Below the pieces are notes generated by a model. That model had not been told where the DNA came from. It searched no databases and saw only the letters and a list, made by a program, of their open reading frames with translations. Below are positions 52,803 to 58,876 of a DNA stretch of 64,000 bases, in pieces. The stretch lies in NCBI RefSeq assembly GCF_050920415.1, contig NZ_CP169309.1; one strand, written 5' to 3'. The translations under genes and the position numbers were made by a program. Positions within the stretch are counted from its first letter, which is position 1. Each line of letters begins with the position of its first letter. The DNA is from Escherichia coli (GTDB lineage: Bacteria; Pseudomonadota; Gammaproteobacteria; Enterobacterales; Enterobacteriaceae).

Positions 52803-54290
52803 ATGCAATACATCAAGATCCATGCGCTGGATAACGTCGCGGTTGCTTTAGCAGATTTGGCGGAAGGCACAGAAGTCAGTGTCGATAACCAAACTGTCAC
52901 GCTGCGCCAGGATGTTGCTCGTGGACATAAATTTGCGTTAACGGATATCGCAAAAGGGGCCAACGTCATTAAATATGGCCTGCCGATTGGTTATGCATTG
53001 GCGGATATTGCGGCGGGGGAACACGTTCACGCCCACAATACGCGCACGAATCTCAGCGATCTGGATCAGTATCGCTATCAACCTGATTTTCAGGATCTGC
53101 CTGCGCAAGCGGCAGATCGTGAAGTGCAGATCTATCGTCGCGCTAACGGCGATGTCGGGGTGCGTAATGAGCTGTGGATCCTGCCAACCGTGGGTTGTGT
53201 TAACGGCATCGCGCGGCAGATCCAGAACCGTTTCCTGAAAGAGACCAACAACGCCGAAGGTACTGACGGCGTGTTCCTCTTCAGCCACACCTACGGCTGC
53301 TCGCAGCTGGGCGACGATCACATCAATACCCGCACCATGCTGCAAAATATGGTGCGCCACCCGAACGCGGGCGCAGTGCTGGTGATTGGCCTGGGTTGTG
53401 AAAACAACCAGGTTGCCGCATTCCGTGAAACGCTGGGCGATATCGATCCTGAACGCGTTCATTTCATGATCTGCCAACAGCAGGATGATGAGATCGAAGC
53501 CGGGATCGCGCATTTGCATCAGTTGTATAACGTAATGCGCAACGACAAACGTGAGCCGGGCAAACTCAGCGAACTGAAGTTTGGTCTGGAATGCGGTGGT
53601 TCTGACGGTCTTTCTGGTATTACTGCTAACCCAATGCTGGGGCGTTTCTCTGATTACGTCATTGCTAACGGCGGCACTACCGTACTGACCGAAGTGCCGG
53701 AGATGTTCGGCGCAGAGCAGTTGCTGATGGACCATTGTCGTGACGAAGCAACGTTTGAAAAACTGGTCACTATGGTCAACGACTTCAAGCAGTACTTTAT
53801 TGCCCATGACCAGCCTATCTACGAAAACCCATCGCCGGGGAACAAAGCGGGCGGTATCACCACGCTGGAAGACAAATCACTTGGCTGTACCCAGAAAGCG
53901 GGTTCCAGCGTCGTGGTTGACGTGCTGCGTTACGGCGAGCGTCTGAAAACGCCGGGGCTGAACTTGTTAAGTGCGCCGGGTAACGATGCCGTAGCGACCA
54001 GCGCCCTGGCGGGTGCGGGCTGCCATATGGTGCTGTTCAGTACTGGTCGTGGCACGCCGTATGGTGGATTTGTGCCGACGGTGAAAATCGCCACCAACAG
54101 TGAACTGGCGGCGAAGAAAAAACACTGGATCGACTTTGACGCGGGTCAGCTGATCCACGGTAAAGCGATGCCGCAGTTGCTGGAAGAATTTATCGACACC
54201 ATCGTTGAGTTTGCCAACGGTAAGCAAACCTGCAACGAGCGTAACGACTTCCGCGAACTGGCGATCTTTAAAAGCGGCGTAACGCTATAA
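52803..54290 (+). CDS. uxaA: Altronate dehydratase UxaA
   Basis: 495-aa ORF, SAF plus dehydratase domains, paralogous to GarD. Confidence 0.92.
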   Translation: MQYIKIHALDNVAVALADLAEGTEVSVDNQTVTLRQDVARGHKFALTDIAKGANVIKYGLPIGYALADIAAGEHVHAHNTRTNLSDLDQYRYQPDFQDLPAQAADREVQIYRRANGDVGVRNELWILPTVGCVNGIARQIQNRFLKETNNAEGTDGVFLFSHTYGCSQLGDDHINTRTMLQNMVRHPNAGAVLVIGLGCENNQVAAFRETLGDIDPERVHFMICQQQDDEIEAGIAHLHQLYNVMRNDKREPGKLSELKFGLECGGSDGLSGITANPMLGRFSDYVIANGGTTVLTEVPEMFGAEQLLMDHCRDEATFEKLVTMVNDFKQYFIAHDQPIYENPSPGNKAGGITTLEDKSLGCTQKAGSSVVVDVLRYGERLKTPGLNLLSAPGNDAVATSALAGAGCHMVLFSTGRGTPYGGFVPTVKIATNSELAAKKKHWIDFDAGQLIHGKAMPQLLEEFIDTIVEFANGKQTCNERNDFRELAIFKSGVTL

Positions 54291-54314
54291 AGTCGAAATG
54301 AGTTGTTAATAAAA

Positions 54315-54347
54315 AACGGCGTTTCATAATGTGAAGCGCCGTTTGCT
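54315..54347 (+). terminator. Putative terminator after uxaA
   Basis: Imperfect hairpin AACGGCGTTTC...GAAGCGCCGTT followed by TGCTTTT. Confidence 0.5.
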
Positions 54348-54372
54348 TTTCCATACCTGCTAAGGATTTATC

Positions 54373-54924
54373 ATGACCGCGTATTGGCTGGCCCAGGGCG
54401 TGGGTGTCATCGCCTTTCTGATTGGTATCACAACATTTTTCAATCGTGACGAACGTCGCTTCAAAAAGCAGCTTTCGGTCTATAGCGCCGTTATTGGCGT
54501 GCATTTTTTTCTTATGGGCACCTATCCCGCTGGTGCCAGTGCCATTCTTAATGCCATTCGTACGCTGATTACCTTACGCACGCGCAGCTTATGGATAATG
54601 GCGATCTTCATCGTGCTGACGGGAGGAGTTGGCCTGGCGAAGTTCCATCATCCCATGGAGCTGCTGCCGGTTATCGGCACGATTGTCAGTACCTGGGCGC
54701 TGTTCCGTTGTAAAGGGCTGACCATGCGCTGCGTGATGTGGTTTTCTACTTGTTGCTGGTTAACTCACAACATTTGGGCCGGGTCGATTGGTGGCACAAT
54801 GATTGAAGGCAGTTTTCTGCTGATGAATGGCCTGAATATCATTCGTTTTTGGCGTATGCAGAGAAGGGGAATTGATCCGTTTAAAGTGGAGAAAACCCCT
54901 TCCGCCGTAGACGAAAGGGGCTAA
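54373..54924 (+). CDS. ygjV: Inner membrane protein YgjV
   Basis: 183-aa hydrophobic ORF; stop lies 3 bp from the convergent sstT stop. Confidence 0.85.
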   Translation: MTAYWLAQGVGVIAFLIGITTFFNRDERRFKKQLSVYSAVIGVHFFLMGTYPAGASAILNAIRTLITLRTRSLWIMAIFIVLTGGVGLAKFHHPMELLPVIGTIVSTWALFRCKGLTMRCVMWFSTCCWLTHNIWAGSIGGTMIEGSFLLMNGLNIIRFWRMQRRGIDPFKVEKTPSAVDERG

Positions 54925-54927
54925 GTA

Positions 54928-56172
54928 TTAGTTACGCAGGGCGCTATTTGCCAGACGATCGTCTTCCGCCTGGCAAGCTGCTGCAGTGAACAGCACGTCA
55001 GTTGAAGAGTTCAGCGCGGTTTCGCAAGAGTCCTGCAATACGCCGATGATAAAGCCGACGGCAACCACCTGCATGGCGATATCGTTCGAAATACCGAACA
55101 TATTACAGGCCAGCGGGATCAGCAGCAGAGAACCACCTGCCACGCCGGACGCACCACAGGCGCACAGAGAAGCCACTACGCTCAACAGCAGCGCCGTTGG
55201 TAGATCCACCGGAATACCCAGCGTATTAACCGCAGCCAGCGTCAACACGGTAATGGTGATTGCTGCGCCCGCCATATTGATCGTTGCACCTAGCGGAATA
55301 GAAACGGAATAGGTATCACGATCCAGATTCAGCTTTTCACACAGCGCCATATTCACCGGAATGTTCGCCGCAGAGCTGCGGGTGAAGAAGGCGTACACGC
55401 CGCTTTCGCGCAGGCACAGCAGCACCAGCGGGAACGGGTTACGACGAATTTTCCACCACACCAGCAATGGGTTAACCACCAGCGCCACCAGTAACATACA
55501 GCCAACCAGCACCACCAGCAGTTGCGCGTAGCCCCACAGTGTGGAGAAACCGGTGGTAGCCAGGGTAGAAGAAACCAACCCAAAAATACCGATCGGTGCG
55601 AAGCGAATGACCAGTTTCACCATAAAGGTGACGGCATTCGACATATCGTTGACCAGGTTTTTGGTGGTCTCGTTACCGTGACGCAGTGCGAAACCGAGGC
55701 CAATTGCCCACACCAGAATCCCGATGTAGTTACCTTTCAGCAGCGCGTCGATGGGGTTGGAAACCATGCTCATTACCAGCCCGCGCATCACTTCGACAAT
55801 GCCTGACGGCGGCGAAATATCACCCGCGCTACTGGACAAGTGCAGGGTAGAAGGGAAGGCAAAGCTGAAGACTACTGCGGCCAGAGCAGCAGAGAAGGTG
55901 CCCAGTAGATAGAGGAACAAAATAGGACGGATATTGGTTTTCTGCCCGTGCTGGTGGTTAGCAATAGACGCCATTACCAGCATCAACACCAGGATGGGGG
56001 CAACGGCTTTCAGTGCGCCGACGAACAAAGTACCTAACAGACCAACAGCTTCCGCCGCGGGTTTTGAGATCCATGCCAGAAGAATCCCCAGAACAAGGCC
56101 GACCAGGATTTGTTTTACCAGGCTGCCATGAGCCAGACGCCGGAATAGCCCCGGTGAACGTTGCGTAGTCAT
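54928..56172 (-). CDS. sstT: Na+-coupled serine/threonine transporter SstT
   Basis: 414-aa multi-pass ORF, DAACS family. Confidence 0.9.
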
Positions 56173-56641
56173 TTTTCGATCCTTTCATTGTGTTGTCGCA
56201 CATCCCTGGTGCGTTCTGTCGACGCATCTTTCAGGATGTAACAAAGTGTTTGCAAGGTCGAGTATAAGGAAAGTTACAGCTTCGGGAAGCGAAAAATGCT
56301 GGATTTTAAAGAGAGGTCATATTTTGCAACTTAATGGTTACATTTATTTGACATAAACAGAGGGAAGGACTGGCTGCTGAGACTGATTAGATAACATATA
56401 GGCAAAACTATTTGGCATATGAGAACTGTTGCGCTCCTGTGATGTACGATGCCACATAAAGTCACTGGCGCAGGGAGCGGCCAATCGCCGCTGCCCCGGC
56501 CTGCAGGGAACGCTTCGGTGATTTTGACGCCACTAACACCCAAGCGATCTTTTTGTAAAGAGCTATAAGTCGGTTACATACTTAATCGCTCATCTTTGTC
56601 TGGAAGGAGTTATCACCCGTAGTGGCTTAATATACAGCGAA

Positions 56642-57607
56642 TTATCCCACCCGCTGCTTATCATGCCGATAATTCACCCAGGCGTTGATAATAAACGTCA
56701 TCACCAGAATACCAAACACCACGCCCAGCGAAACGGCGATCGGAATATGGTAGAAATCGACAATCAGCATCTTGATACCGATAAACACCAGAATTACCGC
56801 CAGACCATATTTGAGCATCGAGAAACGTTCTGCTACGCCCGCCAACAGGAAATACATCGCACGCAGGCCGAGGATCGCAAACAGGTTTGAGGTCAGCACA
56901 ATAAACGGATCGGTGGTCACGGCGAAGATAGCCGGAATGCTATCCACGGCGAAAATCACGTCGCTCAACTCCACCAGAATCAGTACCAGCATCAGCGGCG
57001 TGGCATACAACAAACCATTCTTACGCACAAAGAAATGCTCGTTGTCGATGGTGTCGGTCATGCGCAAATGACCGCGCAGCCAGCGCACCAGCGGCTTGTC
57101 ACCAATACCTGATTCATCTTCATGAGCCAGCGCCATCTTCACGCCAGTAAACAGCAGGAAGGCACCGAAGATATACAGGATCCAGTCGAACTGCGAAATC
57201 AGCCAGCTGCCAGTGAAGATCATGATGGTACGCAGAACAATCGCCCCGAGTACGCCATACACGAGCACGCGGCGTTGTAATGCCGCCGGAACAGAGAAAT
57301 AGCTGAACAACATCAGCCAGACGAAGACGTTATCGACCGCCAGTGATTTCTCAATCAGATAACCGGTGAGAAACGCCAGTGCCTGCGGGTCCGCGACTTC
57401 GCGCCCCTGCGTCTGGACTAAATACCACCAGAAAGCGGCGTTAAACAGTAACGATAGCGTCACCCAGACCAGCGACCAGGCTGCAGCCTGTTTCATGGTC
57501 ATGGCATGCGCGCCACGACGCCCCTGCAACAACAGGTCGATAGCCAGCATAATGGCGACAACGACAGCGAATCCGCCCCATAGCAACGGCGTGCCGACAG
57601 TATTCAT
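56642..57607 (-). CDS. alx: TerC-family inner membrane protein Alx (YgjT)
   Basis: 321-aa multi-pass ORF. Confidence 0.9.
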
Positions 57608-57800
57608 AGAAGTTCCTTACACATAAAAAAACGGCCAACGTCGGAAGACGTCAGCCGCTGCTTTTTATGCATAGACCTCGCCTTCCGGCAAGGTCTCACT
57701 TACAACAAAAAAGGAATACGTCTGCGTATTCCTTTCGGGTTGCCCGGTGACCGGATGTGGTTTTTCACACATCGTAATGACGATCGACCGGCAATGAAGT
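57608..57800 (-). promoter_or_regulatory. alx 5' leader (pH-responsive riboregulatory element region)
   Basis: Long structured leader with a stem-loop plus T7 immediately before the alx RBS and a second stem-loop GGAATACG-TCTG-CGTATTCC upstream; boundaries approximate. Confidence 0.5.
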
Positions 57801-57889
57801 TACTCCCCTTTGCAGGTAACAAAGTATGACAGACCATTCGGTCAGTCAATGGTCTGTTACATCCCTTTTACACTGTTTTACTTTGGCTA

Positions 57890-58876
57890 TTATAGTTTTA
57901 CGCTATCTGCCGGAAAAATCACCCCGGTCTGGCGGCGGATCTCGGTCAGCAGCCTGGCGGTGATACGACTGACCGCCAGCCCTGGATGATCTACCAGATG
58001 TTCATCCACCAGGGTAGCGAACAGCTCTGCTTCGTACAGCATGGTATTAATATGCTGCGGTTGGGTAAGATCCTGCATCTGGCTGCCGCGCGGCACAAAG
58101 CAAACTTTCTGGCATTCAGACAGTTTTTCAATCACCAGCGATCCCGCTTCGCCCTGAATCTCACTTGCCAGCACAGAATCACTGACCTTTGAGTGCTGCA
58201 AGGTAACGCTGAAATCACCGTAATCCATCACCACCACGCCGTGGGCATCCACACCACTTGCCAGCAAACTGGCGGTTGCCTGCACGCTTTTCGGTTCACC
58301 AAATAACGCCACCGCCGACGCCAGACAGTAAAAGCCGATATCCATAATTGAACCGTTGGAGAATGCCGGATTGAAGGTGTTGGGATTCTCGCCGTCCAGA
58401 TAACGTTGATATCGCGAGGAATATTGGCAATAGTTGAAAAAGACTTTACGCAATTTGCCAACTTTCGGCAGTACCTGGCGTAACAAATGGAAATTCGGCA
58501 GGCTGGCGGTTTTAAATGCCTCAAACAGCACCACCTGATTTTCCCGCGCACAGGCAATGGCGGCATCCACTTCCGCCAGATTCGACGCCAGCGGTTTCTC
58601 GCAAATCACATGAATTTTATGGCTAAGGAAAAGTTGTGTCTGGGAAAAATGCAGGGCATTCGGGCTGGCAATATACACCGCGTCAATGGCATCGCTTTCT
58701 GCCATCGCTTCCAGCGATGTAAACAGATGCTCGACAGAAAAATCATTGGCGAAGTGCTGGGCCTGTTCAAGGCTGCGGGAATAGACAGCGGTTAACTTGT
58801 ATTTACCGCTCTCATGGGCGGCCTCGACGAACTGGCGGGTGATCCAGTTCGTGCCAATCACAGCGAAACGTATCAT
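57890..58876 (-). CDS. ygjR: Gfo/Idh/MocA-family NAD(P)-dependent oxidoreductase YgjR
   Basis: ORF 57890..58894 trimmed to MIRFAVIGTNWITRQF (Rossmann motif). Confidence 0.85.
   Translation of the reverse strand: MIRFAVIGTNWITRQFVEAAHESGKYKLTAVYSRSLEQAQHFANDFSVEHLFTSLEAMAESDAIDAVYIASPNALHFSQTQLFLSHKIHVICEKPLASNLAEVDAAIACARENQVVLFEAFKTASLPNFHLLRQVLPKVGKLRKVFFNYCQYSSRYQRYLDGENPNTFNPAFSNGSIMDIGFYCLASAVALFGEPKSVQATASLLASGVDAHGVVVMDYGDFSVTLQHSKVSDSVLASEIQGEAGSLVIEKLSECQKVCFVPRGSQMQDLTQPQHINTMLYEAELFATLVDEHLVDHPGLAVSRITARLLTEIRRQTGVIFPADSVKL

Follow-up and report, generated by a model that had tools for sequence, protein, structure and literature searches.

A tight convergent ygjV-sstT junction in Escherichia coli with a probable sstT terminator encoded in the last codons of ygjV

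Results and Discussion

In a 64-kb stretch of Escherichia coli DNA (the window), the convergent genes ygjV and sstT meet at a tight junction, and we consider it highly likely that a Rho-independent terminator of sstT is encoded in the last 12 codons of ygjV, while ygjV transcription runs antisense into sstT. The tight arrangement as such is unremarkable and has been described before. What is added here is a small comparative point: alignment of related loci indicates that the terminator is dual-coded in the C-terminal codons of the neighboring gene, with the ygjV frame having apparently crept through it in Escherichia.

Junction and alleles

The ORF list, RefSeq, and Pfam agree on two coding sequences: ygjV at 54373..54924 on the plus strand, encoding an inner-membrane protein of the Imp-YgjV family (183 aa; TAA at 54922..54924), and sstT at 54928..56172 on the minus strand, encoding a Na+/serine-threonine symporter of the SDF family (414 aa; TAA at 54930..54928). 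Pfam PF10688 (Imp-YgjV) matches the former with E = 2.6e-60 over aa 5-163 of 183, and SDF matches the sstT product with E = 9.3e-65. Read directly, positions 54920..54930 are gc TAA gta tta, within the wider context gaa agg ggc TAA gta tta gtt acg at 54910..54936, and on the opposite strand the TTA at 54928..54930 reads as the sstT TAA. The spacer GTA (54925..54927) between both stops measures 3 bp; K-12 has 4 bp, and other Enterobacterales range from -4 to 117 bp (with one outlier at 513). The earlier note had placed the two stop codons 3 bp apart, and this is confirmed by the sequence, the ORF list, and the RefSeq coordinates in an identical genome, as ygjV and sstT are annotated at the same CDS coordinates in NZ_CP169399.1, which is 100% identical across the stretch. 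The coding sequences themselves do not overlap in the window, where these 3 bp part the ygjV and sstT stops. Gaps between the eight annotated convergent pairs of the window are 203, 49, 54, 271, 132, 50, 3, and 44 bp, and ygjV-sstT is by far the tightest of them; the 3-bp spacing is given here as a structural fact, with no statistical claim attached.

In K-12 MG1655, sstT lies at 3239944..3241188 (+) and ygjV at 3241193..3241744 (-), with the spacer of 4 bp. Exact matches to this K-12-type junction were found in 3221 of 5426 complete E. coli genomes, and the exact 50-nt junction of the window in 1133 of the 5426, EC958 and Nissle among them. Both the 3-bp and the 4-bp junctions are common alleles. 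A 2-kb query was matched in 5419 of the 5426 complete genomes, one of which, NZ_CP169399.1, is 100% identical.

Over the 2 kb at 54300..56300, only 2 of the 5419 E. coli genomes reach at least 99% identity, most standing at about 96.7%, and the window's YgjV shows 98% identity to that of E. albertii versus 95% to that of K-12. The stretch 54300..56300 may carry a divergent or recombinant haplotype; the 50-nt junction allele is nonetheless common to B2 strains (EC958, Nissle). The sstT-ygjV junction was also seen on one record classed as plasmid, which could be a replicon assigned to the wrong class or a plasmid bearing a piece of chromosome.

A probable terminator hairpin for sstT inside ygjV

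Six nucleotides past the sstT stop, the sstT-sense RNA enters a stem-loop at 54895..54921 (minus strand), GCCCCUUUCGUC-UAC-GGCGGAAGGGGU, which was recognized by RNA folding and conservation and comprises 12 bp and a 3-nt loop, the stem growing to 13 bp if the A54922-U54894 pair is added. It lies wholly within the last 12 codons of ygjV: the protein ends in ...E K T P S A V D E R G before the stop, and the stem-loop spans codons T-P-S-A-V-D-E-R-G. On the 3' side of the stem follows the U-rich tract UUUUCUCC (54888..54895, minus strand), interrupted and with 5 U of 8, which is the complement of the ygjV codons GAG AAA A (Glu-Lys-Thr) and whose first U (54895) doubles as the last stem base in the 12-bp fold. 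The sstT-sense fold reaches -19.8 kcal/mol (z = -3.5; -18.7 to -19.8 kcal/mol for the stem over the foldings made), a value equaled by none of 200 shuffles.

Hairpin and U tract together are the anatomy of an intrinsic terminator for sstT. A GC-rich stem after the stop, a U tract, and a structure conserved among relatives are all present, and an in vivo 3' end at the expected distance past the stem (7 nt) comes from published K-12 data only. The claim of the earlier note that the spacing leaves no room for terminators is therefore not borne out, as the 3' end of ygjV contains an intrinsic terminator for sstT that is both canonical and conserved. A simple consensus terminator scan missed this site; the hairpin was detected by direct folding and a custom scan.

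The hairpin occurs once in the 64-kb window, even with three mismatches allowed, by which a repeated element such as REP is ruled out within the window. An Rfam search of 54000..58200 at E <= 1 returned no match, which sets the hairpin apart from described RNA families.

Comparative evidence

For comparison, 80 sstT loci were fetched from one-genome-per-species contigs, giving 82 loci overall. A convergent YgjV homologue lies beside sstT in 36 of these 82 (34 of them among the 80 fetched relatives), representing about 20 genera, whereas in many other genera sstT has no ygjV beside it. A false ygjV ORF produced by annotation is ruled out by the full-length Pfam match and by the conservation of the convergent partner in these 36 loci.

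The loci differ in how far the ygjV frame reaches into the hairpin. Yersinia and Edwardsiella have gaps of 44-49 bp, wide enough for a classical intergenic terminator, whose U tract abuts the ygjV stop. In Citrobacter, Klebsiella, Pluralibacter, Phytobacter, Pseudocitrobacter, and Superficieibacter, ygjV stops within the loop of the hairpin, which leaves gaps of 14-19 bp and YgjV tails such as ...NPSAR*. The ygjV frame of E. coli and E. albertii spans the entire hairpin, with a gap of 3-4 bp. The frame also runs through the sstT hairpin in Serratia plymuthica (L048, 4228..4290), with a gap of 4 bp, and in Enterobacter sp. R1 (L017, 4243..4300), where the coding sequences share 4 nt, the only such overlap observed. 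The run-throughs in S. plymuthica and Enterobacter sp. R1 arose independently.

Stem covariation was assessed in an alignment of 21 Enterobacteriaceae sequences. Standard pairs make up 91.9% of the stem cells, and compensatory double changes are found in seven of eight pairs. None of 500 column shuffles reaches the observed stem values, and sliding the partner by 1-3 columns reduces pairing to 47-67%; as the 21 sequences are related by descent, the shuffle statistics, like the Wilcoxon statistics, overstate independence and are indicative rather than exact.

The last 20 residues of YgjV lie outside the Pfam domain, the tail varies in sequence and length, and the C-terminus is cytoplasmic (PMC4604451). 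These features make neutral extension of a dispensable YgjV tail the best explanation for the tight spacing. The 3-bp spacing would then be a by-product, Escherichia presumably having lost the stop codon in the hairpin loop that Citrobacter and Klebsiella still keep.

Strand asymmetry of the hairpin

The palindrome folds on both strands, and it is thus conceivable that the hairpin serves as a shared bidirectional terminator for sstT and ygjV, perhaps helped by head-on polymerase collisions. Bidirectional terminators unlike canonical intrinsic ones have been attributed to convergent E. coli genes in the hundreds (Ju et al. 2019, as cited in bioRxiv 10.1101/2022.10.23.513370), and a stem-loop is said to position polymerase collisions. 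We regard this reading as distinctly unlikely for the present junction, since the two strands are far from equivalent. Mean dG across the 21 sequences is -20.4 kcal/mol for sstT-sense RNA and -16.0 kcal/mol for ygjV-sense RNA, the sstT sense being the stabler in 20 of 21, and 12 G-U cells of the alignment turn into A-C mismatches on the opposite strand. Of the 8 nt past the stem, a mean of 4.8 are U in sstT-sense RNA and 0.7 in ygjV-sense RNA. In E. coli itself the stem is worth only -9 to -12 kcal/mol in the ygjV sense, and the sequence behind it is CUAAGUAU (2-3 U of 8). Moreover, the E. coli stem lies in translated ygjV codons, so ribosomes should melt it, and release 7-9 nt past the stem would leave only about 4-6 nt after the ygjV stop. 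No K-12 minus-strand 3' terminus is listed near the hairpin in the tables of Adams et al. (2021) or TRS 2023. With unequal stability, a U tract on one side, and no ygjV 3' end in the published tables, the hairpin does not fit the description of a bidirectional terminator.

In the ygjV-sense RNA 54863..54902 (+), the MFE fold joins the CCCCUUC arm to a GAAGGGG lying upstream (54863..54869) and not to its terminator partner. This alternative pairing also sits in ygjV codons, and its z is only -1.4.

The sstT 3' end and a Rho-dependent zone downstream

Published K-12 data place a "Primary" 3' terminus of sstT at 3241228 (+) (range 3241224-3241234), with exactly this hairpin (TRS 2023, PMC10687069, Suppl. 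Data 2-4). This position aligns to 54889 of the window, 7 nt past the last G of the stem, and the K-12 transcript thus ends 40 nt beyond the sstT stop and 36 nt within the ygjV CDS. The experimental 3'-end data are all from K-12, with its 4-bp spacer, and not from the window strain; as hairpin and U tract are identical to those of K-12 apart from flanking bases, the sstT mRNA of the window strain is predicted to have the same ending, with its 3' end at about 54889. A polymerase transcribing sstT would pass the stop, make the 12- to 13-bp hairpin followed by UUUUCUCC, and free the RNA some 39-40 nt past the stop.

Further along the sstT strand, a bicyclomycin-sensitive Rho region has been reported at K-12 3241399 (score, 3.23; p = 7.5e-7; Adams et al. 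2021, PMC7815308, Suppl. file 2). The peak aligns to 54718 of the window, antisense to ygjV and about 170 nt past the hairpin end. It falls in a stretch at 54700..54887 (minus strand) where, by composition, the sstT-sense RNA antisense to ygjV is C-rich and G-poor (C/G = 1.75), and this stretch, which K-12 Rho mapping also marks, is a probable backup zone of Rho-dependent termination for sstT read-through. Polymerases that escape the hairpin would accordingly be halted by Rho about 170 nt on, in C-rich RNA, the bicyclomycin sensitivity being that of K-12. The downstream Rho-dependent signal shows appreciable read-through past the sstT terminator. A dominant Term-seq 3' end at about 3241228 is not listed by Adams et al. 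(PMC7815308), which may mean that the terminator is weak or that sstT was poorly expressed under their conditions.

These observations could also be accommodated if the 3' end at the hairpin were a processing product, a longer, Rho-terminated sstT RNA being trimmed by 3' exonucleases back to the stem. The Rho-dependent region about 170 nt downstream would supply the precursor, and the imperfect U tract and the lack of a dominant end at the hairpin in the data of Adams et al. would fit. We nevertheless consider processing unlikely, as the end was mapped inside the U tract, 7 nt from the stem, where intrinsic termination would place it, and a pyrimidine- and U-rich tail is conserved across genera (mean, 4.8 U of 8), which would be needless for a mere exonuclease block. 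Intrinsic termination at the hairpin thus remains the preferred account of the sstT end.

The ygjV transcript end and antisense overlap

On the plus strand, the terminator scan yields no site downstream of 54735, hence none past the ygjV stop, and the fold in the ygjV direction over 54915..54990 (+) is no better than shuffles (z = +0.32). Scan, folding, and composition were also applied to 54931..55330 (+), the zone entered by ygjV transcripts and antisense to the 3' coding end of sstT; it contains no hairpin followed by a U tract, and a mild zone of C over G is confined to 55091..55250. No ygjV 3' end is listed in the tables of Adams 2021 (PMC7815308) or TRS 2023 (PMC10687069), nor in the TERMITe supplements. 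Since the hairpin is weak on the ygjV strand, lacks a U tail, and is translated, and since no site lies downstream, ygjV transcripts must extend antisense into sstT, where they probably end diffusely by Rho or polymerase collision. The outcome would be an obligatory antisense overlap, of 36 nt of sstT 3' UTR against the ygjV CDS and of some ygjV 3' UTR against the sstT CDS.

The earlier note had held that the 3' UTRs of the two mRNAs must overlap and be mutually antisense. That the transcripts overlap in antisense agrees with the K-12 sstT end inside the ygjV CDS and with a published excludon list. The UTRs themselves share only the 3-bp spacer, each being antisense mainly to the coding sequence of the other gene, and the ygjV half of this picture is deduced from the sequence features above. 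On that list, sstT-ygjV is among 165 convergent excludons with overlap in at least 50% of 58 MG1655 transcriptomes (ExcludonFinder, PMC12288877, Table 1). Neighboring convergent genes with overlapping transcripts, as a convergent excludon is defined, are thus what the literature describes here (PMC12288877; PMC10687069).

Whether the overlap amounts to a selected regulatory device, that is, a true excludon in which interference or RNase III cleavage of the duplex brings about reciprocal expression of SstT and YgjV, is a separate matter. The overlapping transcription in at least half of the 58 transcriptomes (PMC12288877) and the sstT-sense read-through extending at least about 210 nt into ygjV (PMC7815308) speak for such a device. 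However, no reciprocal expression data were found in the literature, and "sstT-ygjV" were grouped together as Cra-activated in a transcriptome study (PMC8085971), a joint activation that does not suggest antagonism. The spacing is also unconserved (3 or 4 bp in E. coli, -4 to 117 bp in relatives), ygjV is often absent, and what is conserved is the terminator, an element that restricts overlap instead of favoring it. A selected excludon is therefore very unlikely in our view.

There is a still slimmer chance that the embedded terminator couples the two genes: as it consists of ygjV codons and is crossed head-on by ygjV transcription, ygjV activity could modulate sstT termination or read-through, and the overlap could modulate mRNA stability. 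If this were true, serine/threonine uptake and the uncharacterized YgjV, encoded beside hexuronate genes, would be under condition-dependent reciprocal control, and selection rather than neutrality would underlie the independent frame extensions of Escherichia, Serratia plymuthica, and Enterobacter sp. R1.

Flanking regions

Upstream of ygjV, the terminator scan places a terminator-like hairpin of 14 bp after uxaA (54314..54344, plus strand), 29 nt before the ygjV start. A promoter-like site, TTGTTA-16-CATAAT at 54303..54330 (+), overlaps this post-uxaA hairpin. With hairpin and promoter-like site overlapping, ygjV may depend on read-through from uxaCA or on a terminator-nested promoter.

On the other side, the sstT upstream region is long, with 469 bp between alx and sstT (56173..56641, minus strand; K-12 3239546..3239943). 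The sstT mRNA is a target of the sRNA GcvB, which might account for a 5'-UTR fragment. In K-12, a very strong Term-seq 3' end lies at 3239923, only 21 nt upstream of the sstT start; its Rho score is not significant and its score as an intrinsic terminator is low (PMC7815308, Suppl. file 3), and a distant terminus of alx is given at 3239706 (PMC10687069).

Significance and comparison with known systems

The significance of the junction is small beyond careful annotation: a near-zero intergenic length need not mean that a terminator is absent. Terminators dual-coded in the dispensable C-terminal tail of a neighboring gene can mislead terminator finders restricted to intergenic regions, and residues encoded by the stem (e.g., the "PSA" motif) can mislead analyses of C-terminal protein conservation. 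sstT-ygjV can also be used as a small test case in studies of convergent transcription.

Compared with E. coli intrinsic terminators in general, the sstT site shares the 12- to 13-bp GC-rich stem, the 3-nt loop, the U-rich tract, and covariation, as well as the position of the stem 6 nt past the stop and, in K-12, of the 3' end 7 nt past the stem. Unlike typical intrinsic terminators, the sstT hairpin lies in the coding sequence of the convergent neighbor and not in an intergenic region; its U tract UUUUCUCC is interrupted, and a Rho-dependent zone appears to act as backup. With the overlapping bidirectional terminators of convergent genes (Ju et al. 2019, SEnd-seq; Wang et al., bioRxiv 2022), it has in common a single stem-loop at the boundary of the pair. 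In contrast to those, the sstT hairpin is asymmetric, being stable and U-tailed one way only, and the second gene has no 3' end in the published tables. Finally, among the excludons of ExcludonFinder (PMC12288877), sstT-ygjV is itself on the list, convergent and with overlapping transcripts, whereas the listed pairs are on average 95 nt apart, versus 3-4 nt here, and the excludon hallmark of mutually exclusive expression or RNase III processing is putative for this pair.
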